From the IMG/VR virus record IMGVR_UViG_649989924_000003: a stretch of DNA of 64,000 nucleotides; one strand, written 5' to 3'. Below the pieces are notes generated by a model, which saw only the letters and a list, made by a program, of their open reading frames with translations, was not told where the DNA came from and did not search any database. Below are positions 18,670 to 63,461 of this stretch, in pieces; position 1 is the first letter of the stretch; each line of letters begins with the position of its first letter. Made by a program: the position numbers and the translations under genes. This stretch comes from a virus (lineage: Duplodnaviria; Heunggongvirae; Uroviricota; Caudoviricetes).

Positions 18670-18708
18670 AATTTCTCCTTTATATTGAAAGGGATGAAAA
18701 AATCATCC

Positions 18709-38183: not shown

Positions 38184-38191
38184 CTAATTGG

Positions 38192-38265
38192 GTATGTTTT
38201 TTGGAGGCCTCGACCAGACTTGAACTGGTATAAATAGGGTTGCAGCCTATTGCATAGCCATTCTG
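38192..38265 (-). tRNA. tRNA-Cys(GCA)
   Basis: Anticodon arm ATAGG-CTGCAAC-CCTAT, T-arm ACCAG-TTCAAGT-CTGGT. Confidence 0.55.
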
Positions 38266-38319
38266 CCACGAGGTCGCAAATATTTTCTTTTTGTTTTACA
38301 ATATTTTAACTTTATATTT

Positions 38320-38649
38320 TCATTTAATGACCCATTGAAGTTTTGAATCATCAGTAAAATATAATTCTCCTCCATAATCAGAGCACCAACTTTTGTCCAA
38401 ATTGACTTTTTCTTCATTGTTTTTCAATTCTATTTCATAATCTTGTTTCATCTGAGAAACTAAATTATCTTCTCGTGAAATTGAAATATTACTCTTCAAA
38501 GTTTTGTTTATAATAACATTTCCACTAATAAGACTATCTTTAAATTCATCTATAGTGGCTTTTTTAATGATTTTTTTATATATTTTTTTATTTTGCACTT
38601 TCATAACAACAAATCTGTAATACTTTGCGTATTTGAAAATTAGGCTCAT
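38320..38649 (-). CDS. hypothetical protein (insertion within tRNA array)
   Basis: 109-aa ORF. Confidence 0.4.
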   Translation of the reverse strand: MSLIFKYAKYYRFVVMKVQNKKIYKKIIKKATIDEFKDSLISGNVIINKTLKSNISISREDNLVSQMKQDYEIELKNNEEKVNLDKSWCSDYGGELYFTDDSKLQWVIK

Positions 38650-39400: not shown

Positions 39401-39676
39401 ATAACACCTCTCTCGTCCATCTAAAGGCTTTATAGTAGCCTTTTAAAAACTAGTTAAAATAAATCAATACTCCTTAAAAACCCCTGCTGGCATCTGCCAT
39501 ATATATTCTGGAGTGCTTTTCAGTATTCTGACTTACCATGCCAATATCAGAAGTTTGATGAACTGAAAAGAATTTTTTGAATAAGGTTTTACATGGATAT
39601 TTATATACCTTATACCTGTAGAGGAAAATTTTAGAATATGTTATCAGCAAAAACAATTTATATCCTAAATAATATT

Positions 39677-39704
39677 TGGTGCTCATAGTAGGATTTGAAC
39701 CTAC
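39677..39704 (-). pseudogene. Orphan tRNA 3' fragment (T-arm + acceptor 3' strand + CCA)
   Basis: Minus strand GTAGG-TTCAAAT-CCTAC-TATGAGC-A-CCA with no matching 5' half. Confidence 0.5.
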
Positions 39705-39716
39705 ATATGGGCATTT

Positions 39717-39792
39717 TGGTAGGAATAATAGGAATCGAACCTATATTGCACGATTATCGGTCGTGAGTACTCACCAGTTGTACGATACTCCT
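39717..39792 (-). tRNA. tRNA-Ile(GAT), C33 anticodon loop
   Basis: D-stem GTAC/GTAC, anticodon arm CACGA-CCGATAA-TCGTG, T-arm ATAGG-TTCGATT-CCTAT. Confidence 0.5.
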
Positions 39793-39795
39793 ATA

Positions 39796-39869
39796 TGGTA
39801 TCCGTTGGTGGTAATGCTCCACCGTCTTCAACTTGTAAGGATGATGTTTTCCTTTTAAACTAAACGGAT
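39796..39869 (-). tRNA. tRNA-Val(TAC) with atypical T-loop
   Basis: Acceptor ATCCGTT/AACGGAT, anticodon loop CTTACAA, T-arm GGTGG-AGCATTA-CCACC. Confidence 0.45.
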
Positions 39870-39870
39870 A

Positions 39871-39947
39871 TGGTCTCGATAAAAGGATTTGAACCTTTAC
39901 AAACTCGGTCCCAGGCCGAGTGCACTACCAAATTATGCTATATCGAG
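39871..39947 (-). tRNA. tRNA-Pro(TGG), C33 anticodon loop
   Basis: Anticodon arm CTCGG-CCTGGGA-CCGAG, T-arm AAAGG-TTCAAAT-CCTTT. Confidence 0.55.
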
Positions 39948-40074
39948 AGGAAAGAGAATATCTCTTCCGTATTTATGCTGGACCAGACATAATATGTTTA
40001 TCTATCACTACAATAGACTGGACTCCGAGATACTTCCCAATATCTTATCTTTACCTTATTTCATGAAGGAAATT

Positions 40075-40148
40075 GGCACCTCTTGAAGGAATTGAACCCT
40101 CATCGTGGAGGTAGAAACTCCATGCTCTATCCATTAAGCTAAAGAGGT
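40075..40148 (-). tRNA. tRNA-Arg(TCT)
   Basis: Acceptor ACCTCTT/AAGAGGT, anticodon arm TGGAG-TTTCTAC-CTCCA. Confidence 0.6.
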
Positions 40149-40351
40149 AATAATGATAACTATTTATCGCAATAGCCTTAGCATCTGACTCCTTATACAG
40201 AATATACTTTCATTTTCTATTCTTTCATGCACTTTCAAATATACTAAGAAAATATATATTTTCGTCAAAGCCAACCTCCTAGCTCGTGACTATCTGCATC
40301 CATTGCTTATGCAGTTTCCACATGGTTTTATTTAATAAATTATATAATCAT

Positions 40352-40428
40352 TGGTGGACGATATAGGATTCGAACCTATGACCAGTCGGTTATGAGCCGA
40401 CAGCTCTGACCATCTGAGCTAAACGTCC
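40352..40428 (-). tRNA. tRNA-Met(CAT), elongator type
   Basis: Anticodon arm GTCGG-CTCATAA-CCGAC, T-arm ATAGG-TTCGAAT-CCTAT. Confidence 0.55.
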
Positions 40429-40440
40429 ATATTTTTAAAA

Positions 40441-40519
40441 TGGTGGAAACTTTGGAATTCGAATCCAACTGATTTCCTGTGTGCAAAACAGGTGACCACA
40501 CCTAGCAGTCCCAGTTCCC
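40441..40519 (-). tRNA. tRNA-Ala(TGC)
   Basis: G3-U70 wobble pair present, anticodon arm CCTGT-TTTGCAC-ACAGG. Confidence 0.6.
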
Positions 40520-40531
40520 AATAATACATTA

Positions 40532-40619
40532 TGGCGCTGACTATAGGACTCGAACCTATGCTAGATTTACATCTAGTACGGTTTAGCAAACCGCTGCTTT
40601 ACCACTCAGCCAAGTCAGC
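40532..40619 (-). tRNA. tRNA-Ser(GCT), class II
   Basis: Long variable arm; anticodon arm GCGGT-TTGCTAA-ACCGT. Confidence 0.6.
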
Positions 40620-40627
40620 AAAAATAT

Positions 40628-40714
40628 TGGTACTCCTAATGGGAATCGAACCCATACGAGCTTTTGCCCACAGAAGTTTAAGTTCTGTATGTCTACCGAT
40701 TTCATCATAGGAGT
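40628..40714 (-). tRNA. tRNA-Leu(TAA), class II
   Basis: Anticodon arm CAGAA-CTTAAAC-TTCTG, long variable arm. Confidence 0.6.
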
Positions 40715-40717
40715 ATT

Positions 40718-40802
40718 TGGTCTTCTCGAAGAGATTTGAACTCTTACGCTATAAAGCACTAGTTTCTAAAACTAGCATGTCTACCTATTCCATCACGAGA
40801 AG
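40718..40802 (-). tRNA. tRNA-Leu(TAG), class II
   Basis: Anticodon arm CTAGT-TTTAGAA-ACTAG. Confidence 0.6.
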
Positions 40803-40807
40803 ATGAT

Positions 40808-40884
40808 TGGTGGTTTCAGATGGACTTGAACCAACGCTACGAGAAGTTTCAGTTATCTGCTCTACCAGATTGAGCTATGAAACC
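40808..40884 (-). tRNA. tRNA-Phe(GAA)
   Basis: Anticodon loop CTGAAAC, D-arm GCTC/GAGC. Confidence 0.6.
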
Positions 40885-40898
40885 AGATGATAAAATAT

Positions 40899-40973
40899 TG
40901 GCACCTCTGTAAGGAGTCGAACCTTAAGTTTTGGTTTTGGAGACCAATGTGTTCCCTTTTACACTACAGAGAT
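40899..40973 (-). tRNA. tRNA-Trp(CCA)
   Basis: Anticodon arm TTGGT-CTCCAAA-ACCAA. Confidence 0.6.
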
Positions 40974-40975
40974 AT

Positions 40976-41052
40976 TGGCATCAGGGAGAGGGCTCGAACC
41001 TCTAAATGTGGGAGTCAAGGTCCCATGTGCTTACCAGTTTCACCACCCTGAT
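40976..41052 (-). tRNA. tRNA-Gln(TTG), C33 anticodon loop
   Basis: Anticodon arm TGGGA-CCTTGAC-TCCCA. Confidence 0.55.
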
Positions 41053-41068
41053 ATCTAAATAGATTTAG

Positions 41069-41141
41069 TATACTTAGAAGTGGTTGAACCCTCATACCCT
41101 CTATTAGAAGTCGAGTGCATTACCAACTTTGCTACAAGTAC
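41069..41141 (-). tRNA. Degenerate tRNA-like gene (anticodon TCT, Arg-like), no encoded CCA
   Basis: Acceptor pairs only with two G-U wobbles; mismatches in anticodon and T stems. Confidence 0.3.
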
Positions 41142-41166
41142 AATATGTAATTATGAAATTTTTTAA

Positions 41167-41253
41167 TGGTGGGCCCCCCTGGATTCGAACCAGCAGCGTT
41201 TCTAATGTCACAGATTTACAGTCTGCTTCCTTCACCAATTTGGATAGAGACCC
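41167..41253 (-). tRNA. tRNA-Tyr(GTA), class II
   Basis: Anticodon loop CTGTAAA, long variable arm. Confidence 0.6.
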
Positions 41254-41260
41254 ATATGTT

Positions 41261-41347
41261 TGGCGCTCAGTGAGGGACTCGAACCCCCAAGTCCTTTCAG
41301 ACCAACTGTTTTCAAGACAGCACGACTACCAATTATCACAACTGAGC
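41261..41347 (-). tRNA. tRNA-Ser(TGA), class II
   Basis: Anticodon arm GCTGT-CTTGAAA-ACAGT. Confidence 0.6.
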
Positions 41348-41530
41348 GTTTTTAAATTATAAATATTGATTGACCTCACAACACTCCTATGAAATCACCC
41401 AATGGTCTATTGACAAGAAAGATATCATCTCAGAGTTTTTAATTATCTACTGTAAACTTTTTTTTACAATAATAAATAATCACAAGCTATACTTTTATGG
41501 TAGATACTGGAGAAAGTAACTAATGATTAA

Positions 41531-41604
41531 TGGTATCCGAGGTGGGAGTCGAACCCACGATATCTGATAGAGCGCTAAAGCGTAAACTGCTTGCCAACTC
41601 GGAC
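41531..41604 (-). tRNA. tRNA-like gene with canonical acceptor and T-arm but no canonical D/anticodon arms (isotype undetermined)
   Basis: T-arm GTGGG-TTCGACT-CCCAC and acceptor GTCCGAG/CTCGGAT+A+CCA are clear. The body contains an AAGC-AGTTTAC-GCTT hairpin that does not fit cloverleaf positions. Confidence 0.3.
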
Positions 41605-41609
41605 ATATT

Positions 41610-41686
41610 TGGCGGACCCTACAGGACTTGAACCTGTGACCCTTACGTTAACAGCGCATCGCTCTAACCAACTGAGCTAAAGGTCC
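41610..41686 (-). tRNA. tRNA-Asn(GTT)
   Basis: Anticodon loop CTGTTAA, D-arm GCTC/GAGC. Confidence 0.6.
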
Positions 41687-41707
41687 ATAAAATAATAAAA
41701 TGATACT

Positions 41708-41782
41708 TGGAGTGGGTAAAGGGAATCGAACCCTCATCCTCTGCTTGGAAGGCAGATATACGAACCATTATACTATACCCAC
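41708..41782 (-). tRNA. tRNA-Gly(TCC)
   Basis: Anticodon arm TCTGC-CTTCCAA-GCAGA. Confidence 0.6.
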
Positions 41783-41786
41783 AATA

Positions 41787-41862
41787 TGGTGCCATCTGAG
41801 AGATTCGAACTCCCAACCAACTGATTACAGGTCAGCTGCACTTCCAGTTGTGCTAAGGTGGC
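41787..41862 (-). tRNA. tRNA-Thr(TGT), C33 anticodon loop
   Basis: Anticodon arm GCTGA-CCTGTAA-TCAGT. Confidence 0.55.
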
Positions 41863-41866
41863 AAAT

Positions 41867-41941
41867 TGGCGGAACATAGGAGAATTGAACTCCTATCTCT
41901 TGATAGACAGTCAAGTATATTTTCCATTATACGAATGCTCC
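41867..41941 (-). tRNA. tRNA-Asp(GTC)
   Basis: Anticodon arm CTTGA-CTGTCTA-TCAAG. Confidence 0.6.
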
Positions 41942-41942
41942 A

Positions 41943-42019
41943 TGGTTGCAGAGGCAGGATTTGAACCTGCGACCTCAGGATAATGAGTCCTGCGAGCTAC
42001 CAAACTGCTCTACTCTACG
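41943..42019 (-). tRNA. Initiator tRNA-fMet(CAT)
   Basis: C1-A72 mismatch, D-arm GAGC/GCTC, anticodon arm CAGGA-CTCATTA-TCCTG, 3' end GCAACCA. Confidence 0.6.
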
Positions 42020-43346: not shown

Positions 43347-45059
43347 TTATTCATCCCACCAGTTATAATTTTTAATGTCATCTTCAATCTGATGAGAGCT
43401 TGAGGATGATTGTTTTTTTATTTGCCTGATTGCTTCACTTTCTTGAATTCCCGGAGAAAACCATGCTGGTTTATCTGAGTTGTTCTTCAAATCATTAAAC
43501 AAAAATGTTAGAAAGCAGTTTATTTGATTATCTGGAGTCTTGAAAGAATATCCAGAGGTTTTTATTCTATCAAGAATATTAAGCATAATTGAATCAAAGG
43601 ATGCCTGATGAATAATAAGTTTTTCAAGATTCATTATTAACAAATCCCCTTCTATCATTTTCGCTTCTTTACTCATATAGAATTTCTTAAAGAGCTTCAG
43701 TTTATTGAAGCAGGCATTGAGAAAGTCTTTATCAGTGTTTTCTATAAAGATTGAATTATAAATAGAAGAATTGATTTCATTAATTAAATTAATTAATAAA
43801 GAATCGTTTTTATTATTTTCAGTATAAGTATTTAAAGTTTTATTAATGTTGATATCTTTTTCGCTATTTTGTTTCTTTCTTTTTGAAGAAATTGTTTCTT
43901 TCATATCTGATGAAATGATGGCTCTTGATGGAGTCTTGATATCTGTCAAATTCTCTGAATTATGGCTCTTTTCAATTTTTTCTTCATCATCACAAGTCAA
44001 ATTCACGAAATTGTGGCTCTCATCTAATATGTCATAATCATCAAATTGTGGCTCACTGGATTCTTTCATGTCTATATCTTCAAGGTATTGCTTTACAAAT
44101 TGATATATTTTATCTGGGAAGTTTCTTGTTCCATTTTCCCATTTGGAATATGTCTGTTTATAAAGGCTTAATGAATATTTTTTATTTATAGCCTCTACTA
44201 TCTGTTTTTGGGTTAAGTTATGCTTTAAGCGAAGCTGTTTAACATATGTATAATTTCTTTTATTTTTATTGATAATTAAATCTTCTTTGAGTTGGTCCAT
44301 GCGACTCTTTAGATATAGTTTTTTGTTTTTGCTGTCTAAGCTTTCAAATTCTTCAACATTATCTTCAAAGTTGAAAAGTTTTAATAGATAGAAACGGGTA
44401 TCCTGTGAAAATGCTCTATATTCAAATAATAAACCACAGGCTTTTAAAAGATATCTTCCTCTTTTTAATGCTGACTGTCCAAGCCCTAATTTCTTTTCCT
44501 GAGTTTCAAGAGATTCTTGGAAGTATATTCTTTCTTTGTCATCCACAAAATAATTCATTTGAGATAAACACATTGTATCAAAGTATATAGAATATTGAAG
44601 TTTTGTAGCTAGAGGTAGATTGTTATAGATATCATCAAATAATTCATTTGGAAACCTAAAGAAATTGTAACTATCTAAATCTGTTTCATAATAAAACTCA
44701 TCTGTTTCATCTTTTTTATTATAGTTATATAGATATATCTTATTATTTCCAACGCTTCGCTTATAGTTGATGAGTCCAACCCTCTTTAAATCTGCTCTTG
44801 CTCGGCAACATGTTGATTCACTAATTTTTAATTTATTCATTATATCAGAATCTGAGTAGATAATATAAGGACCACTGTTATCTTTATAAGTGGTAATGAT
44901 ATATCTGTTTAAATAGAGAGAATACATAAACTTTGCTGGAACAGAAAGTTTTTTGAATCTATTATCTGAAAATAAGACTTTTGGTATAGATAAGAAAGCA
45001 TCTATTTTTGTTGTATCATTAATATTATAGTATTTAGATTCTTTATCCATAGAAAACAC
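43347..45059 (-). CDS. RepA_N-type replication initiator with internal HTH
   Basis: N-terminal region (LSIPKVLFSD..LSVPAKFMYSLYLNRY...RVGLINYKR) resembles Firmicute RepA_N proteins. Central HTH LTQKQIVEAINKKYSLS. Confidence 0.55.
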   Translation of the reverse strand: MFSMDKESKYYNINDTTKIDAFLSIPKVLFSDNRFKKLSVPAKFMYSLYLNRYIITTYKDNSGPYIIYSDSDIMNKLKISESTCCRARADLKRVGLINYKRSVGNNKIYLYNYNKKDETDEFYYETDLDSYNFFRFPNELFDDIYNNLPLATKLQYSIYFDTMCLSQMNYFVDDKERIYFQESLETQEKKLGLGQSALKRGRYLLKACGLLFEYRAFSQDTRFYLLKLFNFEDNVEEFESLDSKNKKLYLKSRMDQLKEDLIINKNKRNYTYVKQLRLKHNLTQKQIVEAINKKYSLSLYKQTYSKWENGTRNFPDKIYQFVKQYLEDIDMKESSEPQFDDYDILDESHNFVNLTCDDEEKIEKSHNSENLTDIKTPSRAIISSDMKETISSKRKKQNSEKDININKTLNTYTENNKNDSLLINLINEINSSIYNSIFIENTDKDFLNACFNKLKLFKKFYMSKEAKMIEGDLLIMNLEKLIIHQASFDSIMLNILDRIKTSGYSFKTPDNQINCFLTFLFNDLKNNSDKPAWFSPGIQESEAIRQIKKQSSSSSHQIEDDIKNYNWWDE

Positions 45060-51933: not shown

Positions 51934-52047
51934 GTTTATTTCCTCCTTATGTTTCGCATAGATTTACGTATATATTTTATCATAAATTTCATGAGTTGCG
52001 TTTTTCTGTTTGGATGTTATAAGTGTCAAAGGGGTTAGATAGCCCAT

Positions 52048-52785
52048 TTACCCTTTGTCATGAATTATCCAATGCATAATAGCTAATTCTTTTAGCACTT
52101 CCTTTCTGACAACAATGTTAATTGGCTGCTCATATAATCCACATGATAAGACTGGATAGATATTCATGCGATTCCTATTTTTGACTAACTCTCCTTTTTC
52201 ATTGAACCTTGCAGCACTCTTTTGGTGTATTTCATATGCTCTTATCTTATCAACAAGTACCTCTAAATCTCCTAAATGTCTTTCAATCTCTTTTTTAAGA
52301 GTTTCTTTATTGATAAGCATTGCTTCTGTTTCAGCTACATTATCTTGTGTCATAAGAGCCTTACCTTGCCTGTAGGATGAAGCTCCAATAATCTCATGAT
52401 AGACGATAAGATAGTATTCTGTTTCTACATCTGGGTTAATTAGCCAACCTTTTTGCGAAGTGTTTATATTTCCTGAAATTTCAAAGCAGAATGTTGGAAG
52501 CTGTGAAGCAATAGACTTTATATCTACTTTGATATCCTGACCATAAAGTTGAGCAATGACGTCAATTCCTCGTAGCTGTCTATCCCTGTCCTTCACAATT
52601 TCCTGAATATTCATATCCTTAAATATATTCGTGTTTTGAAGATATTGGATAGAAGTTTCTTCAAATGCTTTATCCCCTACCCAGTTTGTTCTTTTATTTG
52701 ATTGTGATGAATGGATAGACCGAGATGTCCTGTTTCCTAGATTTAGTTTGTATGCGTGGTTATTTTCTCTTTTATTAAAATCCAT
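52048..52785 (-). CDS. hypothetical protein
   Basis: 245-aa ORF. Confidence 0.5.
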   Translation of the reverse strand: MDFNKRENNHAYKLNLGNRTSRSIHSSQSNKRTNWVGDKAFEETSIQYLQNTNIFKDMNIQEIVKDRDRQLRGIDVIAQLYGQDIKVDIKSIASQLPTFCFEISGNINTSQKGWLINPDVETEYYLIVYHEIIGASSYRQGKALMTQDNVAETEAMLINKETLKKEIERHLGDLEVLVDKIRAYEIHQKSAARFNEKGELVKNRNRMNIYPVLSCGLYEQPINIVVRKEVLKELAIMHWIIHDKG

Positions 52786-52806
52786 AAAGTTTCATTCCTC
52801 CTTCCT

Positions 52807-53472
52807 TTATTTTTTATCAATATTTAAGATAGGCAAATCACCATTATAGTCTTTTTTTAGATGTTCAAAGATTTGATAAAGTGCTTCAACATCGTTAATA
52901 GCTCTATGTGCGACATATTCAATACCATATAATTTTCCTAAGTCAGACTGCTGATTTGATGCAACAAGTCCTTTTTCTTTTAGCTTCATGTTTATTGCCA
53001 TCTTTAGTGTGTCTAGACTCCTTTCAAATGGAAAGTTAAGTTTGAATCTCTTTGTAGCTACTTTTAACATTCTGTTATCAAAACTATTAATATTTTGTCC
53101 AACTGCTAGACTTGTTTCTTTGCTGTTGCACCATTCAACAAACTGTTTAACTACATCATATTCTGGTGGCTTATCACTTAACATCTTATTTGTAATACCA
53201 GTAATCTCAACAATTCTTTGAGTGATAAAAATCCCTGGATTGCATAGTGCTGAAAATGAGTCAACAATAGTATTATCTTCAACATAAATAGCTCCAATTT
53301 CAATGATATGGTCCTTATTAGTTAAACCTGTTGTCTCTAGGTCATACATGATATAATTACCAAGCGTTTTATCTGTGACTTGCTGATAGATGCAAATCGG
53401 AAATCGCAGGCATCTTAAATCATTTGATTCATCCAATAGGCAACCACATATTGGACACTTGTTCTGTTTCAT
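52807..53472 (-). CDS. DnaQ-like 3'-5' exonuclease with N-terminal zinc finger
   Basis: CPICGC...C..C then Exo I YIMYDLETTG; Exo III-like HRAINDV. Confidence 0.7.
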   Translation of the reverse strand: MKQNKCPICGCLLDESNDLRCLRFPICIYQQVTDKTLGNYIMYDLETTGLTNKDHIIEIGAIYVEDNTIVDSFSALCNPGIFITQRIVEITGITNKMLSDKPPEYDVVKQFVEWCNSKETSLAVGQNINSFDNRMLKVATKRFKLNFPFERSLDTLKMAINMKLKEKGLVASNQQSDLGKLYGIEYVAHRAINDVEALYQIFEHLKKDYNGDLPILNIDKK

Positions 53473-53743
53473 CTTTATCCTCCTTTAAATAATAAGATAA
53501 TTGAAATTGTATAATAGACTGTTCTTTGATGTTCCTCCTCCTTGAATTGTTTAGACAGAGTCAATATGCTGACCTTGTCTTCAACAAAAAAAGATATACC
53601 TCTGCTGAGATATACCTCTTCTTCGTTCTAATATACATTCATATTGTATCATATTTTTTAGCATTGAGTATTTATATTAATCATGAAATTATTGTTTTAA
53701 GAGAAGTGACTCGTGAAATAAAAAGGGTTAGTTAACCCATTGT

Positions 53744-53765
53744 AAAGGTCAAGGGCTATTTAACC
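53744..53765. repeat. 22-bp inverted repeat, left arm (partner at 54487..54508)
   Basis: AAAGGTCAAGGGCTATTTAACC vs reverse complement of GGTTAAATAGCCCTTGACCTTT. Confidence 0.6.
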
Positions 53766-53807
53766 TTTTTTTATAAAAATGCTCTAATTAATTTGCAGGA
53801 TTTTATG

Positions 53808-53859
53808 TTGACTTTTAAAAGGGTTCTTCTTAAGTAAATATAACACTAACTTTATATTT
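53808..53859. repeat. 52-bp inverted repeat, left arm (partner at 55617..55668)
   Basis: TTGACTTTTAAAAGGGTTCTTCTTAAGTAAATATAACACTAACTTTATATTT; partner reverse complement differs at ~4 positions. Confidence 0.6.
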
Positions 53860-54486
53860 ATAATTATTTTTAAGAGAATTTTGGTCGTTTATTTATGGTT
53901 TTTCTTATTTCTTATTCAGAATGCATTTTATTGGATATTTTTTCAGAAAAACGCATATTTTTTCAATTTTTTGAATTAGCATTATACTATCACTATTCAG
54001 CCTTTGTTAAGTATAAAGTGAGGTGGGAGGGATTTATCAGGTATCTTGAAAAACTCTTTGAATATACTACCTCCTTAACATTCTTTAAAAACTCCTCCTA
54101 TACCCCTTTTATTTCATTTGAGCTTATATGCTATAGCAAGTTTTTATATGATTGCTTATATAATCTCTAAATTTCAATTCTAAGAGACTTTTATGTGCTT
54201 GGTGGATAGTCAGAGGGTGTTTGCGAATAGGAGGCGGAGAGAGGGATTTAAGAGCGTTTTTATATGCTTATGCTTAAAAATATATAAATGTTGATAAAGT
54301 AATAATTGAGTAACATCTCTTAACATCCCTCAATCTCTTTTAAACTCCTTTTTTTAAATTATGTTGGACCGTGATTCGTTTCATCATCTATTGAGAATCA
54401 CCTTATGAAAGGTAGCAGAAAAGCATGTAGAAAGAATTTTATATAGAGCAAGTTTTTATATTGGATATAAAAGGATTGTAGGGAGG

Positions 54487-54508
54487 GGTTAAATAGCCCT
54501 TGACCTTT
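54487..54508. repeat. 22-bp inverted repeat, right arm
   Basis: See left arm. Confidence 0.6.
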
Positions 54509-54863
54509 GATAAAGGTTAATTAGCCTTTGTATATAAAAGAAATGACTGGCATAGGTGATAATCCTATTTACATTCCAGTAAAAATCTAATGACATAAAA
54601 AACAGGTAGTTGTGGAAGGAGTTAAAGAGATTTTTGTCATGCAGATATGTGTTAGTATATAAAAGTTTCCTTTTATAATTCCTTCTATCCTCTTTTAATT
54701 CTAAATTTTAATAGATACAAAGAATGGTAGGAGGTTTTAATGAGAGTCTGCCTGTTAAGGGGAGTAGTTGGGGTATAAAGAGAATTTTGAGAGTAGATAA
54801 AGCTTATCTAGAAAAGTATGACTTGAGTTTGAGTGGAATAAAAAAAGACTCTCGAGAGAATCT

Positions 54864-55268
54864 TTACAAACACTTTCTAAGCTGTTCAGAGAGACTTCTA
54901 AGAATTTCCTGAGGGTATCTTACAAGCATGTTCAATGAGTCAGTATAGCAAAACTGTTTAGACTGAAATCTAAATATTATCCATGATAATCCTACTAAAA
55001 ATATAAATAGTATGAGCAGCACCAGAGAAAATGCCTGAGCATTCCATTGATAAGAAATGAGGATATAGAGGAGTGTTAGGAATGTTGAAAGAGCAATACT
55101 CATCAAATAATAAGTTGAAGTTTTAAATCTTGTATAAATATCAATCTTTGTTTTCTTTCCAGTCCCTAATAAAAACTCTATACATTCCTGCTTGATAAGA
55201 ATAGTTTCTCTTAAGTTAAATTTCATATATGACACCTCTTTTTTTTGTGAGTTACGAATAGCGAACAT
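54864..55268 (-). CDS. small membrane protein
   Basis: 134 aa with two long hydrophobic helices. Confidence 0.4.
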   Translation of the reverse strand: MFAIRNSQKKEVSYMKFNLRETILIKQECIEFLLGTGKKTKIDIYTRFKTSTYYLMSIALSTFLTLLYILISYQWNAQAFSLVLLILFIFLVGLSWIIFRFQSKQFCYTDSLNMLVRYPQEILRSLSEQLRKCL

Positions 55269-55616
55269 CTTTTATAGTTAGGATTATAACATAAATACTT
55301 TTGGAAATCAATAAATATATGTTGCATCAGGTAAAGTATTGCTTTAGCATAAAACTAGGAATGTGGTTGAATCAGAAGCAAACAAAGTATTTTGGGTAAG
55401 TGAATGGAATGGGTTTTTAAGAGAAAGGAAATGAATGTTGAGAGGAGGATAGGGGAGTAGGGAGAAGGGAGAGAGGTAGTAGGGGATAGAAAATGCGAAA
55501 TCAATAAAATCGCTTTAAAATCTTCAAAATTAAAAAATTCACCATAAAAAAGTATGATGAAATAAAAGTCCAAAAAAACGCTCAAAAACCTCTAGAAACT
55601 CCTTAAAAATAGTGGC

Positions 55617-55668
55617 AAATATAAAGTTAGTGTTATATTTGCTTAAGAAGAACTCCTTTAAAAGTCAA
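55617..55668. repeat. 52-bp inverted repeat, right arm
   Basis: See left arm. Confidence 0.6.
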
Positions 55669-55871
55669 ACCTTATTGACTCTCAATATATAATTATCTAA
55701 ATATATTAAAAAAAATCCAAAAACTTAAAGAATTATGCTTATGTGGGCTAACTAACCCATGAAAATAATTTCTATTGCGGAAAAAGTCAATTCAAGTTAT
55801 AATTGACTTTGATTAGAGTATCTTGGATATAAAAATATTATCAAAAAGCAAGGAATTTAATTGAGAAGGGA

Positions 55872-56825
55872 ATGGTAGCAATGGGCAAAAACACAAAAGT
55901 AATTACACTCTATAATCAAAAAGGAGGCGTTGGTAAAACAACAACAACAATTAATCTCGCTCAAGTTCTAGGGAGTACCTTTAATAAAAAAGTATTAATT
56001 ATTGATAATGATGCTCAAAACTCTCTTAGCTTTCTGGCAAATATACAAATAAGAAATAATGGAGCTGTAGAAGATGAAGATGGATTAAAGACATTAGGGT
56101 GGCTGGAACAGATGTTTCAGTTATACGGAGATGTTCCAACAGTTCGAGATATTCAGGAAACAATTATAACTCCAACATATCAAAAATCGGAGAGAATTGA
56201 AGGAACCATTGAGTGGGATATAGTCGAGAAAAAATTTGCGTTCGATATGATTCCTGGAACTGGAAAAGACTTATCTTTGGCTGAATTGATTTTTATCACG
56301 CCCAACGATGAACCTTTTATTCTTAAGCCAGAAAATAGAAAATTGGCGCCATATGTCTTGAAAGTTATCATTGAGCAAATAAAGAAATACTTTGATTATG
56401 ATTATATCTTAATTGACTGTCCTCCATCACTAGGTATCTTAAGTATGGGAGCTCTAGTTGCATCAGATTATTTAATTATACCAACAACAAGTGATATGCT
56501 ATCAACGATAGGGATTCAAACAATTATAGACAATCTTAAGGAATTACACTTATATGTACCAGACTTTAATATATTAGGGGTTTTGTTTAATTGCTATTCA
56601 GATACAAAATATGATAATGAGTTGATAGAAGATGTAAGAAATTTTGGAGACTCTCAAGGAATATCTGTATTTGAAGTGAAAATTCCTAAGAAAAATCAAA
56701 TGAGAATGGTAAGTTCTGAAGAGATTATAGCAGTTCTCAAAAACGAGAAGGCTTTTAAGAGTTATACTGAGTCAATTATTGACCTTGCTCAAGAAATTAT
56801 AAAGAAAAGTGAAGGGGGAGAATAG
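55872..56825 (+). CDS. parA: ParA-family partition ATPase
   Basis: Deviant Walker [15 protein letters not shown], Walker B ILIDCPP. Confidence 0.85.
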
Positions 56826-56827
56826 TT

Positions 56828-57856
56828 ATGCCACCAAAAAAGAAATCGATGAGTGATACGGGAACACATAAGGCTTCTTCATCAAGTCTGTTCTCAGCTC
56901 TTGGAGATGGAATAGATGTTACTGGTTTTGACCCAGATTCAAAAACAGTGAGTGAAACATCCAGATTTAGAACCGAATATCTAGAACTATCAAAAATTAT
57001 AGACAATAAAAGTAACAATTTTAGAGCCTTGGATACATTCTATTTGGAATTGTCAATTGCAAAGGTAGGGCAACTTCAACCAATTATTCTAGTTCCAGAA
57101 GTTGTAGAAGGAAAATCAACTGGGCTCTATGAAATAAAAGTGGGGTCTCGACGTTTTGCTGCATTAAATAGGCTACTAGAAAAAGCTTTTAAAAAGAGTA
57201 ATCAAAAGGACATTGAAAAGTACTCAAAAGCTTTTGCAATTATTCTGCCTTATGGTGCTACTCAAGATGAAATTGAAACAATTTATCGAGAAACGAATAC
57301 TACAGCCAGACCATTAACTGTAGAAGAAGTTTTCGCTCATTTTGATGGTATCTTTAAAATAAGTGACACAGGTGAATTTGTTCATATTCCAAAAGGTGTC
57401 AACAAGTATGAATATGTATCCAAAGAGTTTAAGAGGATGGGATTTGATTTTTCAGCAACAAAAGTCAAAGAGTACTTAACAATTTATAGTGCATCTGATA
57501 AAAGAGTTACAGACTGGTTTGAAGATAAGCTTTTAACACGTCAGCAGGCTGTAGAAGTGTCAAGAATGCCTTCGGCTATGCAAATATCTGTAATGGATAA
57601 GTTTGAGCAGATGACAACTAAGGAAATAAGTGATTATATTAAGACTTACATGCTAGAAAAGAAAACAGAGAAGCTTACAAAGAAAATGAGAGGAATCGAT
57701 GCAATTAGCTTTGTAATAAAGAGCAATAAAAATCTGAAACATATTGCAGTAATGGAAAATATCAGATTTCAATCAGAAGATGAGAAACTTAGTTTCTTAA
57801 GTCAGATACAGGAGCTTCAGGACCATTTGAATAAAATTGAAAAATTATTAAAATAA
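56828..57856 (+). CDS. ParB/Srx-fold N-terminal domain protein (partition or nuclease-like)
   Basis: IKVGSRRFAALNRL resembles the ParB GxRR box; translationally coupled to parA. Confidence 0.55.
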   Translation: MPPKKKSMSDTGTHKASSSSLFSALGDGIDVTGFDPDSKTVSETSRFRTEYLELSKIIDNKSNNFRALDTFYLELSIAKVGQLQPIILVPEVVEGKSTGLYEIKVGSRRFAALNRLLEKAFKKSNQKDIEKYSKAFAIILPYGATQDEIETIYRETNTTARPLTVEEVFAHFDGIFKISDTGEFVHIPKGVNKYEYVSKEFKRMGFDFSATKVKEYLTIYSASDKRVTDWFEDKLLTRQQAVEVSRMPSAMQISVMDKFEQMTTKEISDYIKTYMLEKKTEKLTKKMRGIDAISFVIKSNKNLKHIAVMENIRFQSEDEKLSFLSQIQELQDHLNKIEKLLK

Positions 57857-57873
57857 TAAATGAGTTATAAAAA

Positions 57874-57887
57874 GGGTTAATTAGCCC
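57874..57887. promoter_or_regulatory. 14-bp palindrome GGGTTAATTAGCCC (family member; also the terminator stem after parB-like gene)
   Basis: Followed by TTTTTATTT; related palindromes at 53725-53738, 54487-54501, 54515-54526, 55745-55758. Confidence 0.45.
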
Positions 57888-58027
57888 TTTTTATTTAATG
57901 AATATTTTATGTAATAAAATATGATATATGCGAAGCAGGACAACACATATCTTTAGATATGTGATACAATATATATGTAAATTTAAACGAGGCATCAGGA
58001 CTATATTCTCATAATATAGTCTTTTTT

Positions 58028-58486
58028 GTGCTCAAAAGGAGGAAATTTATGAGTTTAAAAAGTAGATTGAAAGAAAATCAAACAGAAGGAGATGTAAAAG
58101 AAGATGTTAAGAAATCTTTGAGTGAGGAAGAAACAGAAAAAATGAGCGATACATATGAAACACCGGAACGAATTGCGTTCAGCAAAGGAGAAAAAGATTA
58201 CCCAAAAAAAATAGACAAAGTTTATGCTCAAATGAAAACAGGAGATGTTTTTTTAGAAGTTCTTGAAGATGGTTTTAATCTAACTGATGAAGATAAGGGA
58301 TATAACACAAAAATTCATATCAATTTCTCTCAGCTGGATAAAAGTATGAAACAAAAAGCATTTAAAAGTCATTATCTTGACTTAACTAATTTTCTATATT
58401 TAAGAAACATTTTTCTCTCAGGTAAATATTCCGTATTAGAAGAATTGGAAAGAGCGACGTTAAATGCTAACAAAAAAATATTGTGA
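58028..58486 (+). CDS. hypothetical protein
   Basis: 152-aa ORF. Confidence 0.45.
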   Translation: MLKRRKFMSLKSRLKENQTEGDVKEDVKKSLSEEETEKMSDTYETPERIAFSKGEKDYPKKIDKVYAQMKTGDVFLEVLEDGFNLTDEDKGYNTKIHINFSQLDKSMKQKAFKSHYLDLTNFLYLRNIFLSGKYSVLEELERATLNANKKIL

Positions 58487-58734
58487 AAGTATTTTTTCTG
58501 AGTATAAACAGCCTGATAAAAGTATTTCAAATACTTTTTATGTAACTCCAGGAATGAAACAAGGCAATTGGATGATTGGCATTGTAGAAGTGAATTCAAA
58601 GACTAAGGAAAACCAAAGAATTCAGGTGCCAGTTACAACTGCCCGATTGATTGCCATGCTTGAGCTTATTTATTTAGCTTACCAGAAACATCTTTTTAGA
58701 AACTAATATTTCAATTGAACAGGAGGAGCTTTAA

Positions 58735-59124
58735 ATGGACTTAAGATTAAAGGATAGATACAAGCAAAGGCTGGCGAAGAATTCTATGCCAGCTTCTTCT
58801 CATAAAAAGGAAAATGAACTGGAAACAATTAGAGGTGCTGTTCAATATCGAATTGTACCTAGAGGATTTTTAGAATCAGATAAGTTAATCTGGGTAGTCA
58901 TGGATATTAAGGATGTTGCCACAAAAGAGCATATCAAAGTTGTTGGAGAAACCAATCACTACAATGTTGGAGACTATTTGGAATTTTATGGAACATGGGT
59001 AGAAAGAAATGGAAAAAAAGAATTTCATTTTAAATATGCATTAAGAGTAGATGATGATTATGTTGGTGCAACAGCTATGCTAGCTTTTCTATTTGGAGCA
59101 AAGACAGCAAAAAAGAATTATTGA
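58735..59124 (+). CDS. hypothetical protein
   Basis: 129-aa ORF with GGAGG RBS. Confidence 0.45.
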   Translation: MDLRLKDRYKQRLAKNSMPASSHKKENELETIRGAVQYRIVPRGFLESDKLIWVVMDIKDVATKEHIKVVGETNHYNVGDYLEFYGTWVERNGKKEFHFKYALRVDDDYVGATAMLAFLFGAKTAKKNY

Positions 59125-61039
59125 GCATTATGATAACAAACCTCAAGAACCTATGAATATCTTTAAAAACAATGAAGAGAGATTTAGAGAAGATATGAAG
59201 TCAGTTAAGGGAATAGGTGATAAAAAAATTCAAAAGGCCTATGAGAAACATAAAAAATATATTGCAGTTGATGCTCTTTATTTTAAATTTGCAAGATTCA
59301 ATCTTTCATTGTCAAAGGCTCTTAAACTTATTAAAAAGTGGGGAAGTGCAGCAGCCGATATTATTGATGAGAATGTTTATCAGTTAATTCATATTGATGG
59401 TTTCTCATTTGAAACAATTGATAGAATTGGATTAGGATATTATAAGTTTGATAAAAAGGATGGAAGGAGAATAGAAGCATATCTTATTCAAATTCTAAAA
59501 AATGCTGCATCAGGAAAAGGAGACTGTTTTTTGCCATTAGAAGGACAGGAAGGTCTTATTGCTCAGGCACAATTAGGCTTAAATATATCAGATAATCTTA
59601 TTAGAGAAAAAGTCATTGACCTTATCTATAAACAAAAGCTGTACAAAAGATTATATGAAGGCAATATAGTTATATATCTTCCTCATATTTATAAAGCTGA
59701 AAAAACTGTTGTGCAAATAGTTTCATCTGCAATACATAAGAATAAAGTTATCAAAGAAGATAAAGTTGATATGATAATTGCTGATTATGAAAAGAGAAAA
59801 GGCTTTACTCTTGCAAACAAACAGAAGGAAAGTATTAAAACCTCATGTATTAATCAGTTTAGCATAATATCTGGTCCACCTGGTTCTGGCAAAACAACAA
59901 TTGTTGATGTCATATGTGAAGTTTTTAGAAGGCATAAAAAAACATGTAATATCAAATTGGCTGCCTTGGCTGGGAAAGCAGCAACACGAATGGCTGAAAC
60001 AACAGGGATAGAAGCCAGTACAATTCATAGATTGCTAGGATATAATCCAGACACTGGATGGACATATAATGAAAAAAATCAGTTGCCAAATGTTGACTTG
60101 CTAATTATTGATGAGTTTTCTATGGTTGACATTCTTCTGTTTGAGAAATTGATGAAAGCTGTCTCAAGAGATACCGTTGTGATTTGTGTAGGAGATAAAG
60201 ACCAGTTACCATCAGTGGATTGTGGACAGGTTTTAGAAGACTTAATTGATGTTCCTTATATTCCTAAGACCATTCTAGAAGAAATCTATAGACAAAAAAA
60301 GGATAGCACCATTTTAAAAAGAGCTCTTGCATTTAATAAAGAACAAATTCCCTCTTTAACTGAAGCGAAGGATTTTAAATTTATTTCCTGTGAGGTAAAT
60401 GATATTAAAAAGACTTCAGAGACTGTCTTGGATTTATATGTAAATAAAATTAAGCAATGGGGAATAAAGAACGTCTGTCTCATGGTTCCACAAAATGTCA
60501 AAGAACTAGGAGGAGATATAATGAATCTTCAACTTCAAGGAATTATTAATCCGCCTGATAAAAGCAAAGCTGAAATCAGTAGTGGGCATAAAAGAGTTTT
60601 TAGAGAGGGTGATAGAGTTATCCAGTTGAAGAATATTGAGAATGGGATTTCAAATGGAATGGTTGGAACTGTTATTGAATGTTTTCCTACGGATAGACAT
60701 ATAGCATCAGAAGATAAGTTTACAGTATTATTTGATAATGGAAATGAAAAGACATATGCCAGAGAAGATTTTGATATGTTAAAGCTTGCATATGCATTAA
60801 CTATTCACAAAAGCCAAGGTTCAGAATATAAATGCATCATTATGCTGATGGATGAGCATCAGAGATTTATGATAAGAAAGAAATTAGTCTATACAGGAAT
60901 GACTCGATGTAAAGATGAACTTTTTATCGTTGGACAGGAAAAGATGTTTGAGCATGCCTTGAAAAATAAAGATAAGCGAAGAAATACTATGTTAACTCAC
61001 TTATTTATGGAATATAAAGAAGGAGCCACAATTTCATGA
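59093..61039 (+). CDS. recD2: RecD2-like SF1 DNA helicase
   Basis: Walker A SGPPGSGKTT, Walker B LIIDEFSMVD, VGDKDQLPSV, LTIHKSQGSE. Confidence 0.8.
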   Translation: MEQRQQKRIIEHYDNKPQEPMNIFKNNEERFREDMKSVKGIGDKKIQKAYEKHKKYIAVDALYFKFARFNLSLSKALKLIKKWGSAAADIIDENVYQLIHIDGFSFETIDRIGLGYYKFDKKDGRRIEAYLIQILKNAASGKGDCFLPLEGQEGLIAQAQLGLNISDNLIREKVIDLIYKQKLYKRLYEGNIVIYLPHIYKAEKTVVQIVSSAIHKNKVIKEDKVDMIIADYEKRKGFTLANKQKESIKTSCINQFSIISGPPGSGKTTIVDVICEVFRRHKKTCNIKLAALAGKAATRMAETTGIEASTIHRLLGYNPDTGWTYNEKNQLPNVDLLIIDEFSMVDILLFEKLMKAVSRDTVVICVGDKDQLPSVDCGQVLEDLIDVPYIPKTILEEIYRQKKDSTILKRALAFNKEQIPSLTEAKDFKFISCEVNDIKKTSETVLDLYVNKIKQWGIKNVCLMVPQNVKELGGDIMNLQLQGIINPPDKSKAEISSGHKRVFREGDRVIQLKNIENGISNGMVGTVIECFPTDRHIASEDKFTVLFDNGNEKTYAREDFDMLKLAYALTIHKSQGSEYKCIIMLMDEHQRFMIRKKLVYTGMTRCKDELFIVGQEKMFEHALKNKDKRRNTMLTHLFMEYKEGATIS

Positions 61040-61114: not shown

Positions 61115-61642
61115 ATGAAAAAAAGACTTATTTTGGATTTTGATGGAACTCTGGTTGAATTTAAACCAGTTGAGAGATTAGATGAACTATTGACTCCTGG
61201 ATATTTTTCAAAACTATTTGTTTTTGAGAATGTTGTTTTAGCTATTCAGGAATTATACAAAAGGCATCCAGAAATAGATATACTCATAGGAAGTAAAGTG
61301 CTAGATGCACCACATATTCCAAAAGACAAAGATGTAATTATAGATAAGCACTTGCCATTTATAAATAGAGAAAATAGAATCTATATCCCTTATGATGCTA
61401 AAAAAACCGATTATATACAAATTACGTCTTGTGATTATGTTTTGGATGATTTAACAAAAAACCTTGTAGAGGTTGAAGAGAGTGGGGGACATGGTATCAA
61501 ACTCTTGAATGGAATAAACGCTAATAAAAGAACATGGAAAGGACCAGCTGTACATAAGGATTATCCTTATACGCTTATTGTTGAGCAGCTAGAAATTTAC
61601 ATGAATTTGAAGGAGAAAGAAAATGAAATGGAAAAAGTATAA
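61115..61642 (+). CDS. HAD-family 5'(3')-deoxyribonucleotidase-like hydrolase
   Basis: Motif I ILDFDGTLVEF near N-terminus; ~175 aa. Confidence 0.5.
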   Translation: MKKRLILDFDGTLVEFKPVERLDELLTPGYFSKLFVFENVVLAIQELYKRHPEIDILIGSKVLDAPHIPKDKDVIIDKHLPFINRENRIYIPYDAKKTDYIQITSCDYVLDDLTKNLVEVEESGGHGIKLLNGINANKRTWKGPAVHKDYPYTLIVEQLEIYMNLKEKENEMEKV

Positions 61643-63461
61643 TAAGATAAGTGGATTGCATGTATGTCCTCAAATGGATATGTATCTTACATCTTGTGGA
61701 TTTACCAAGGCATCCGCCTACTACTTAACTCACCCTTGTGAGATGCATGATAAATATCTTCTACACGATTTAAGAGAAGTTGTTCATGCTATTGGGGAGT
61801 TTATTAAAAATAATAAAAAGATAGTTATTATAGGAGATTATGATGCAGATGGAGTGACATCAACAAGCTGCTTATATTTAACTCTAGATTATTGTGGGGC
61901 TTGTGTGGAGTATCTCATTCCACATAGAGTCAAGAATGGATATGGATTAAGTCATGCTTTGGTGGATGATGCTATTGCAATTAATGCTGATGTTATCTTA
62001 ACATGTGATAATGGCATTTCCGCCTTAGAAGCAATCCGATATGCTAAAAGCAAAGGAATCATTGTTATTGTGACAGACCACCATACACCAGGAGAAACTT
62101 TGCCAATTGCAGATTATATTGTTCATCCTGCTTTAGGAGACTATCCATTTTCTAATATAAGTGGATGTCAGACAGCATATAAACTATGCTTAGGTATCAT
62201 TGAAGAGTGCTCCCCATTAAAGGATAAGAAATTAATAAAAAAAGCAATGAGGAGAAAGGAATTCCAATTGAAGGACTATCTGTTTCAGTTGTCAGCAATT
62301 TCTATTGTAACTGATGTTATGCCACTTGCTTCCATTGATGAAGATACAGCAAAAGTCAATGAAAATAGAAAATGGTTAATGGATGGAATTGAAATGATTA
62401 AAAAGAATCCAGATTGGAGAATTCAAATGATGTTAAAAGAACTTGGGGTCAATCAAAAAACATTTGAAGAAACATCAATTGGGTTTTATGTTGGACCGTG
62501 TTTAAATGCAGTTGGAAGGTTAACTGATGCAGGTAAAGCAGTTCAATTTTTAACAGCACAAACTAAAGAGGAAGACAAAAAAAAGATTTTCATTTATGTA
62601 CTATATCAATGAAGAGAGAAAAAGGTAAAGTTGGAGTGCCTAGAAAAAATTCATATGAGTGATAAACATAAGATTAATTTAATTGTCCAAAAGGAACTGC
62701 ATGAAGGGGTACTTGGGATTTTGGCATCTCATTATACAAATCAGAATGGATATCCAACTTTTGTATTGACTGACTGCACAATCGAAAGTGGTCAAAAAGC
62801 TTGGAAAGGTTCAGGAAGAGGAGTAGAAGAACTAAATTTGTATGATATTCTTTCTCAGGTTCAAGATGAAACAGGGACACTCTATACCTTTGGTGGACAT
62901 GCGGGGGCAGTAGGGGTTACTGTTCTGGATGAAAATATTGAACAATTTAAAAGCAAAATAACTGAAATTGTAGAGGACAGACTTGCTCATTCCTCTTATG
63001 CAAAGAATTATATTCAATTGACAACAATTGAACAAAGAAAGGAAATTGCTGAAGCGGTCAAAGAATTAAAGCCTTTTGGAAATGGACTTCGTTTGCCAAT
63101 CGTGGAATTAAGCTATAATGTTAAGGAAATTAATCTGTATTATAAGTCTAAACACGCTAAATTTCTTCATAAGGAACCTGATAAATCAGGAACAAAGACT
63201 ATTTGGAATAATTTTGAATTATGGAACTATGGAGGATTAGAAGAAGCTAAAATACTATGTAATAGAGATTTTGTTTTATCTTTTGACAATGTTCAAAAAC
63301 TTATAAATAATGGAAAAACAGAATCTGAAGCTCAACAGCAAAAATATGAAAAATATATACGAAAAACGAAGGAATCAAGGGTGACATATAAAGTTGAAGT
63401 TGGTTATAGTGATTTTTGTGGAATGGGGCCAAGATTTAATGTTTTAGAGGTTACTTTTTAG
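61623..63461 (+). pseudogene. recJ: recJ-like DHH/DHHA1 ssDNA exonuclease interrupted by a single in-frame TGA (62610-62612)
   Basis: ORF 61623..62612 carries IIGDYDADGVTS and VTDHHTP. ORF 62631..63461 continues in the same frame with DHHA1 FGGHAGAVG. Only a TGA separates them. Confidence 0.6.

Follow-up and report, generated by a model that had tools for sequence, protein, structure and literature searches.

A candidate partition and transcription-control hub in a RepA_N-type extrachromosomal element of Coprobacillus cateniformis

The parAB locus

The window, that is, the whole 64,000-nt stretch of DNA analysed here (IMG/VR record IMGVR_UViG_649989924_000003; GC content ~31%), belongs to an extrachromosomal element of ~190–206 kb in Coprobacillus cateniformis. 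This element is of the RepA_N type, is found widely in human gut metagenomes and is most likely a RepA_N megaplasmid or a phage-plasmid. Our subject is the repeat-dense, gene-poor region that separates a leftward exonuclease operon from the rightward genes parA and parB, together with the palindromes distributed over and around it. With moderate confidence, we favour the view that this region is the partition and transcription-control hub of the element. The genes and palindromes at the locus are the following, the palindromes being given without strand.

Leftwards from 53472, minus strand: DnaQ-like exonuclease operon
55872–56825, plus strand: parA, 317 aa, Walker-type ParA/PrgP-like ATPase without an N-terminal helix-turn-helix (HTH)
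56828–57856, plus strand: parB, 342 aa, predicted divergent ParB/Noc/KorB-fold protein
52032–52045: palindrome GGGTTAGATAGCCC, ~50 bp upstream of the extended -10 promoter of a SpoVG-like gene
52433–52446: palindrome GGGTTAATTAGCCA, inside the open reading frame (ORF) 52048–52785 (minus strand)
53725–53766: palindrome doublet (53725–53738 and 53753–53766), with an inverted copy at 54486–54527
54486–54527: second palindrome doublet (54486–54499 and 54514–54527)
55745–55758: palindrome GGGCTAACTAACCC, ending 16 nt upstream of the parA -35
57874–57887: palindrome GGGTTAATTAGCCC between an A-run and a T-run, 18 nt past the parB stop

The ATPase begins directly at its P-loop and is recognized by Pfam AAA_31 (1e-35) and CbiA, by the PHROG ParA-like family (1e-41) and, under curated cut-offs, by the NCBIfam ParA/PrgP-like model. 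As in ParABS systems, its gene lies directly upstream of parB. The product of the latter is so divergent that a single-sequence search yields a Pfam match of only E 0.008 and, without a profile, no PDB match. A profile search nevertheless matches Noc and ParB, and the motifs GSRRF and ETNT..R are invariant in 13 homologues. Moreover, the AlphaFold2 model (predicted local distance difference test, pLDDT, 75) matches Noc, ParB-CDP/CTPγS and KorB over ~230–245 columns with probability 1.0, in an alignment that spans both the N-domain and the HTH domain. Judged by this model and the motifs, the 342-aa protein is of the ParB/Noc/KorB fold and has what is expected of a ParABS partner: an N-terminal ParB/Srx domain with the GxxRxxA arginine patch and the ENxxR box, and an HTH. 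In type Ib and chromosomal systems, ParA lacks an N-terminal HTH and regulation by ParB is expected; given the architecture of ParA, this is also the expected mode here.

Palindromes confined to the surroundings of parAB

The pattern GGGYTANNTARCCC, allowing at most one mismatch, has seven matches in the window against 0.16 expected, a count reached in none of 100 shuffles, and the looser pattern GGTTANNTAACC adds an eighth copy at 54514/5. All eight 14-bp palindromes of this family, GGGYTA-NN-TARCCC (the candidate ParB target), fall inside 52032–57887, a span of 5.9 kb around parAB. The remaining 58 kb of the window holds none, nor do the next 9 kb rightwards on longer contigs. An earlier note on this DNA had reported the family at 53725, 54487, 54515, 55745 and 57874; those five are genuine, and the copies at 52032, 52433 and 53753 had been missed. 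The same note had listed a nested inverted repeat of 22 bp, which exists but is better described as a two-palindrome module of 43–48 nt (53718–53765 versus 54487–54533, 81%).

Several palindromes keep a defined distance from promoters. For the exonuclease-operon promoter and that of the genes that follow parB, the distance upstream is 85–100 bp; in three of the four syntenic lineages, the copy before parA ends ~15 nt ahead of the conserved promoter TTG-N17-CAAGTTATAAT. A T-run is missing from several copies, and intragenic copies occur both in the window (52433) and in a relative (L024, 5062).

Only 16 relatives were found by the ParB search. Three of them are syntenic and encode ParB proteins 48% (L023), 44% (L024) and 47% (L029) identical to that of the window. 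L023 and L024 share the gene order exonuclease (minus strand), a gene-poor stretch of ~3.5 kb that holds a single small gene on the minus strand, parA, parB and a RecD2-like helicase gene; the L029 contig starts 150 bp upstream of parA, so that only its parA–parB–RecD2 side is visible. L025 and L027 are RepA_N plasmids in which repA_N diverges from the adjoining parAB, and L032 has a related ParB on a different backbone. Scans of viral contigs with ParA returned only two relatives, at 28% identity; no ParB was found in genome_contigs, and none in metagenome_contigs scanned with the ParB alignment. Related palindromes stand next to parAB in all six of these lineages, on syntenic and non-syntenic backbones alike, at the following positions.

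Window: upstream of parA 55745; after parB 57874
L024: upstream of parA 8940; after parB 11034
L023: upstream of parA 8988; after parB 11096
L029: upstream of parA 62; after parB none of this palindrome family
L025: upstream of parA 8384 and 8776; after parB 11102
L027: upstream of parA 8951; after parB 11048
L032: upstream of parA not seen; after parB 5337, 5529 and 5758

Aligned on their centres, the palindromes of all lineages have in common G at -7/-6, T/C at -4 and A/T at -3/-2. Palindrome-to-promoter positions are conserved between the window and L024, which also has an equivalent palindrome (4017) upstream of the promoter of its SpoVG-like gene; L023 and L029 keep the 55745-type position, as does L024 apart from a 19-bp insert. 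L030, whose backbone is different, has no palindrome of the GGGYTA family beside parAB. A short shared motif of the CTCCTTAA/TTAAAGG type was also tried; it is enriched, but too fuzzy to define a site.

The palindromes are best read as parS or operator sites of the ParB/Noc/KorB-fold protein, whose binding to them we infer from the sequence and its conservation. The suggestion in the earlier note that the layout suits a centromere thus finds support in the confinement of the palindromes to parAB, in the copies that lie within genes or lack a T-run, and in the flanking of parAB by their relatives in six lineages.

Two observations concern sequence variation within the family. Seven of the eight palindromes are hybrids of one GGGTTA and one GGGCTA half, with T·G at positions 4/11, and one is perfectly symmetric; this could reflect chance (about p 0.04) or constraint. 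In addition, three of the 20 population copies described below (L009, L010 and L016) carry an alternative allele at 57864–57936 in which the post-parB palindrome is the exact reverse complement (T57877C and G57884A) and the downstream ~40-nt spacer is swapped for a different hairpin, the rest of the locus being the same.

Promoters and leader hairpins

Three promoter regions are associated with these palindromes.

53473–53660, minus strand: exonuclease-operon promoter–leader module; extended -10 TGATACAAT at 53643–53651, GTA..ACGA, ribosome-binding site (RBS) at 53479–53485
55775–55809, plus strand: parA promoter; -35 TTGCGG, 17-nt spacer, -10 TATAAT (55798–55803), within AGTCAATT-N8-AATTGACT
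57960–58042, plus strand: post-parB promoter–leader module; TGTGATACAAT, GTA..ACGA, hairpin 57998–58021 with T-run, RBS

In the parA promoter, TTG and CAAGTTATAATT are invariant in four lineages. The other two regions belong to a module that emerged when, for four lineages, the DNA preceding the exonuclease operon was aligned with that following parB (7 copies), with the consensus T(A/G)TGnTAnAAT–N6–GTA–N6-8–ACGA–hairpin and U-run–AAGGAGG. The strict pattern has nine matches in the window and recurs in L003, L023, L024 and L029. Module positions in the window are 3556(-), 4489(-), 6413(-), 16436(-), 20653(-), 21060(+), 43240(-), 53651(-), 57962(+) and 63555(+), and in L003 19995(+). Eight leaders were folded, and in each a U-run follows a stable hairpin, whereas the sites at 21060 and 43240 fit the pattern but show no obvious hairpin.

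This module accounts for two of the repeats. An outer inverted repeat links 53623–53784 with 57821–57990 (E 6e-11); because the aligned sequences share the module and their leaders form hairpins, it corresponds, at the level of sequence, to two outward-facing promoter–leader copies, each with a palindrome upstream. The 11-bp direct repeat GATATACCTCT of the earlier note is likewise real, its two copies starting at 53593 and 53609, each one base off the position reported. On the minus strand they base-pair, partly through G·U, and a U-run follows the resulting hairpin (-19.7 kcal/mol, z -5.7), which is the leader hairpin of the exonuclease operon (arms 53593–53603 and 53609–53619). The outer repeat and the apparent direct repeat are therefore parts of one element-wide promoter–leader–hairpin design, which suggests control by attenuation or antitermination, possibly of a regulon.

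Paired arms and a G-rich tract

Within the outer repeat, a second pair of inverted repeats bounds the centre of the region, and a G-rich tract adjoins its right member.

53808–53995, plus strand: left arm; core TTGACTT-N8-GGTTCTTCTT at the outer end, then ~12 T-tracts in 10-bp phase
55480–55668, minus strand: right arm, mirror image of the left arm; core at 55645–55668
55421–55491, plus strand: G-rich polypurine tract with a G-quadruplex (G4)-type motif at 55452–55485, longest loop 12 nt

The 52-bp inverted repeat of the earlier note is genuine (49 of 52 positions identical) but is only the core of a repeat of ~185 nt (53808–53991 versus 55485–55668, 72%, E 8e-24). All six arms of the three lineages in which both are available align and have at their outer end the invariant core TTGACTT-N8-GKTCTTCTT; each element has exactly two copies of it, and no other lies in the 64 kb. 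T-tracts recur with a 10-bp period over ~130 bp in every one of the six, a periodicity equalled by 0–5 of 500 shuffles, and such phasing implies intrinsically bent DNA. The arms are closer to each other within a genome than to their orthologues, and their cores show almost no population variation. No RNA structure or covariation was predicted in them on either strand. The arms are conserved DNA-level elements. They were also considered as promoters and rejected, none of the six having an acceptable -10 at 16–20 nt from its TTGACT. Among viral contigs the core pattern turned up no paired sites, only ~120 isolated matches that are evidently due to chance.

A perfect 8-bp inverted repeat, AGTCAATT-N8-AATTGACT (55784–55809), encloses the parA -10; it carries the heptamer TTGACT(T) of the arm core and is only partly conserved in relatives. 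The right arm also terminates in AAGTCAA-N6-TTGACTC. The shared TTGACT(T) hints at one operator protein for both the parA promoter and the arms.

The motif at 55452–55485 is the sole G4-type motif in the window, and the tract is conserved in position (8711 in L023, 8356 in L024), on the plus strand and inward of the right arm in all three lineages. The earlier note had called three purine tracts anomalous for this AT-rich DNA. Two of them, 54225–54246 and 55440–55486, pass a strict purine/G filter, but as such tracts are common on coding strands in the window, the term fits chiefly 55440–55486.

Most likely, the arms offer a pair of binding sites on intrinsically bent DNA by which the nucleoprotein complex is organised or delimited. 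One possibility is that they serve as paired bent-DNA anchors which, through a partner protein, loop or insulate a 2–3 kb ParB-loading zone; another is that arms and purine tract together support a second, R-loop- or G4-dependent function. We judge it doubtful that arms and G4-prone tract make up a so far undescribed architectural part of a plasmid centromere or control region.

The centre of the region

Between the arms lie one small gene and several repeat-derived features.

54864–55311, minus strand: gene for a membrane protein with two transmembrane (TM) segments; 134-aa ORF, 120 aa from an ATG with RBS; own promoter TTGATT-17-TATAAT (55283–55311, TG-extended)
54229–54335, no strand: long imperfect hairpin or inverted repeat with a purine-rich arm, a ~60-nt loop and a pyrimidine-rich arm
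54604–54697: similar long hairpin; z-scores given for this pair of hairpins, -3.3/-3.7 and -2.2
54444–54480, plus strand: degenerate duplicate of the parA promoter and 5' untranslated region, GCAAGTTTTTATAT..TTGGATATAAAA

The earlier note had seen here 1.76 kb with only small ORFs. Most of it is indeed non-coding, but one small gene is real: its coding part (54864–55268) has a counterpart at the same position in two diverged relatives. Its two-TM product (120–134 aa) has no match in profile and family searches. RBS-anchored small ORFs are not conserved between lineages, and the 62-aa ORF at 54724–54912 has no RBS. In L024, the centre contains ~350-bp units, each with a palindrome. L023 differs at its left side, where ~700 bp of extra pseudogene-like sequence (5750–6300) separates the exonuclease promoter from the left arm and where the palindrome doublet at the left-arm flank, present in the window and in L024, is missing.

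Could the centre instead encode structured or antisense RNAs, as an array of hairpin RNAs or small RNA genes with the palindromes as terminators? Several of its long hairpins do have negative z-scores, L024 and L023 hold many arm pairs that are unlike in sequence yet complementary, and a promoter-like TTAACA-18-TATAAT on the minus strand (54010→53981) aims at the terminator at 53738→53725. Such promoter-like hits are nevertheless no more numerous than in shuffled sequence (28 found versus 24.3 in the sigma-70 scan). Even at E up to 10, Rfam 15 gives no RNA family for the region; only tRNAs reach the gathering score in the window, and the best E within 53400–58100 is 0.58. The centre cannot be aligned between lineages except in ~50-nt patches, and the arms have no consensus structure on either strand. 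Among 21 haplotypes, no compensatory changes were found in the central hairpins; the variants weaken the hairpins. We consider an RNA array unlikely. The centre does not look like structured RNA; it looks like sequence that turns over as parS–promoter pieces are duplicated locally, in direct or inverted orientation.

The question of a replication origin

A second alternative is that the region is, or contains, the vegetative replication origin, with the bent AT-rich arms unwinding and the G-rich tract seeding an R-loop primer, as at the R-loop-primed origins of ColE1, mitochondrial CSBII and phage T4. Consistent with this are the raw cumulative GC-skew minimum at 54 kb and the change of gene direction at the same place, the large size of the conserved non-coding region with its bent AT-rich DNA, the positional conservation of the G4/polypurine tract, the adjacency of parAB and of replication and repair genes, and the presence of parAB directly beside repA_N in L025 and L027. 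The following feature bears on the same question.

43347–45059, minus strand: RepA_N initiator gene with an extra HTH_3-like domain

In plasmids of the RepA_N family, oriV is usually found at repeats inside repA. Here the initiator gene lies 9–10 kb away from the region and holds internal direct repeats (48-nt x2 and 13-nt x3, at 43914–44043), which are probably the oriV of the element. The iteron-like repeats are thus within repA_N (43.9–44.05 kb), whereas 53.5–55.9 kb contains neither an iteron array nor a DnaA-box cluster. The raw skew minimum also coincides with the global switch in gene orientation. With skew modelled as the sum of a gene-strand term and a replication term over the 64 kb analysed, of ~190 kb, a switch at 32–44 kb, near repA_N (residual sum of squares, RSS, 222–264), fits far better than one at 54 kb (RSS 411). 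Moreover, the purine tract is on the plus strand at both inner flanks in two lineages and is hence not mirror-symmetric. The origin raised in the earlier note is not borne out by these results, its GC-skew check included, and we judge it improbable.

Terminators and gene remnants as an alternative

The earlier note had itself pointed out that the palindromes might be intrinsic terminators only. In its full form, this explanation makes them bidirectional terminators and the region a set of functionless gene remnants. The copies at 53725 and 57874 have A/T-run flanks and score as terminators; the centre is slightly more variable among population copies than the flanking genes; and the degenerate promoter duplicate, with the pseudogene-like 700 bp of L023, suggests decay. 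Yet the hairpin sequence of the palindromes is used at no other gene end in 58 kb, where leader and terminator hairpins are all unlike it in sequence, and the intragenic copy at 52433 argues against a purely terminator role. The half-site is conserved and moves with parAB across unrelated backbones, and the arms with their invariant core are conserved across deep divergence. Since the half-site is kept across lineages, copies occur inside genes and none is found at other gene ends, the palindromes are probably not generic terminators, and the explanation as a whole is quite improbable. The palindrome at 57874 may well combine a parS-like site with a bidirectional terminator.

Inversion or transposition as alternatives

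Highly improbable, finally, is the proposal that the 1.8-kb segment bounded by the inverted repeats is an invertible switch or a non-autonomous insertion resembling a miniature inverted-repeat transposable element (MITE): the segment, which has one small gene, lies between long repeats whose outer ends are their best-conserved parts, arm similarity within a genome above that of orthologues implies recombination or gene conversion between arms, and L029, a short-read contig, breaks off 150 bp ahead of parA, but all 20 near-identical, independently assembled copies of the locus (98.3–100% identity) are colinear, three lineages with ParB proteins just 44–48% identical agree in the direction of the small gene, the arm core occurs only as the one pair, neither a target-site duplication nor a direct repeat marks the arm ends, no recombinase or transposase was noted among the flanking genes examined (exonuclease, parA) or inside the segment, and the arms are kept at an orthologous site, unlike those of a decaying MITE. 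Sites of the hix/gix and cer/Xer types, Ter fork traps and an oriT were likewise set aside on the anatomy alone (wrong symmetry, wrong skew polarity, no inversion, no supporting genes).

The element and the remainder of the window

An exact-sequence look-up places ParA and ParB on 190–206 kb contigs from many human gut metagenomes; 1,319 indexed blocks of the assembly collection hold the exact ParA sequence, the contigs reaching 206 kb. Both proteins are also encoded on two Coprobacillus cateniformis isolate scaffolds of ~189.5 and ~189.9 kb. A megablast search of phage and plasmid collections gave no close DNA match to 53400–58000 among deposited phages or plasmids.

Apart from the genes already described, the window contains two tRNA features.

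38119–42019, minus strand: tRNA array of 21 genes
32981–33054, plus strand: separate tRNA-His gene

The tRNA array, together with genes for Pol III alpha, RecD2 and RecJ-like, RuvC-like and CobS/CobT-like proteins, makes up a set like that of large phages; no virion genes were seen among the window proteins scanned. Three genes are split in the window, at 58028–58706 (152+80 aa), 58735–61039 (129+648 aa) and 61623–63461 (329+276 aa), and intact in metagenome copies (218, 767 and 612 aa). The splits are common to the window and GL636582.1 (L021) and are probably sequencing frameshifts of the isolate scaffold, not pseudogenes; given these common splits, the window probably represents one end of GL636582.1. 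In the JGI contig L018, at 16819–21029, a full-length Clp-like gene (667 aa) is followed by HTH, ABC-transporter and FtsX genes where plasmid genes usually stand; a chimeric assembly may explain this, as may a junction formed by integration or recombination.

How the locus may work

If the region is indeed a partition and transcription-control hub, the divergent ParB would load at the eight palindromes over 5.9 kb, in a CTP-dependent manner by analogy with ParB, Noc and KorB, and these sites together would form the centromere acted on by ParA. As palindromes lie upstream of promoters, the same ParB probably autoregulates parAB and tunes the neighbouring operons, in the manner of KorB at OB. 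The bent arms may provide paired sites at which a partner protein organises or bounds the complex, and the central hairpins and extra palindrome doublets would be by-products of local direct and inverted duplications of parS–promoter pieces.

Several points weigh against this interpretation. The palindromes at 57874 and 53725 also look like intrinsic terminators, and population variation in the palindromes is not clearly below that of the surrounding intergenic DNA. The site sequences vary by lineage, with an apparent N2 versus N4 spacer unless they are centre-aligned, so that membership of the family is judged from 4–5 positions per half-site that the sites have in common. Finally, nothing accounts for why partition would require a gene-poor stretch of 2.4–3.5 kb, bent arms and a G-rich tract, and the arms could belong to a different function.

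The element is widespread in human gut metagenomes, yet we found no paper that mentions it. Its candidate centromere or operator sites and promoter grammar may provide handles for Erysipelotrichaceae vectors or stability cassettes and for plasmid tracking. The conserved pair of bent-DNA arms is a small, well-defined puzzle that can be removed or swapped.

Comparison with known systems

F sopC and P1 parS resemble the locus in having, beside a par operon, several inverted repeats that bind ParB, as those here may, and, in the P1 complex, bent DNA. In P1 the bend is supplied by IHF, whereas here the predicted bends are intrinsic (phased T-tracts) and duplicated in inverted orientation. The sites described here are neither in tight tandem nor on one side only, and ParA lacks the N-terminal HTH of type Ia systems.

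In the RepA_N plasmids pAD1 and pCF10, repA is accompanied by a divergent repB–repC or prgP–prgO operon with clusters of repeats on either side. They share with this element an initiator with internal repeats, a PrgP-related ParA and sites on both sides of the par operon; the divergent arrangement of repA_N and parAB recurs in L025 and L027. The differences are nevertheless substantial: a 342-aa ParB_N/HTH protein here versus the small RepC/PrgO there, palindromes versus 8-bp direct iterons, and repA_N 9–10 kb away, with 2.4–3.5 kb of conserved gene-poor DNA between.

With the chromosomal ParABS systems (Spo0J/ParB with several 16-bp parS sites around oriC), the locus has in common palindromes around parAB, some of them intragenic, GxRR- and ENxxR-type ParB motifs with an HTH, and a ParA without N-terminal HTH. 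It differs in the site itself (TGTTNCACGTGAAACA versus GGGYTA-NN-TARCCC), in being part of a plasmid element and in its very divergent ParB.

Finally, KorB of the IncP plasmid RK2 is a ParB-family CTPase with 12 palindromic OB operators, one of which is the centromere. The likeness lies in a ParB-fold protein, whose model matches KorB (8qa8), and in multiple 13–14-bp palindromes at defined promoter distances, either just upstream of the -35 or 50–100 bp upstream of other promoters, which suggests a combined centromere and regulator role. In contrast to the sites of RK2, which are spread over the plasmid, those seen in the 64 kb lie within ~6 kb of parAB; their sequence is unrelated, no KorA-like partner was identified here, and the host is a Firmicute with a RepA_N replicon, to which the regulatory role would extend by analogy. 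The element offers a test of whether a Gram-positive ParB acts as a KorB-like regulator.

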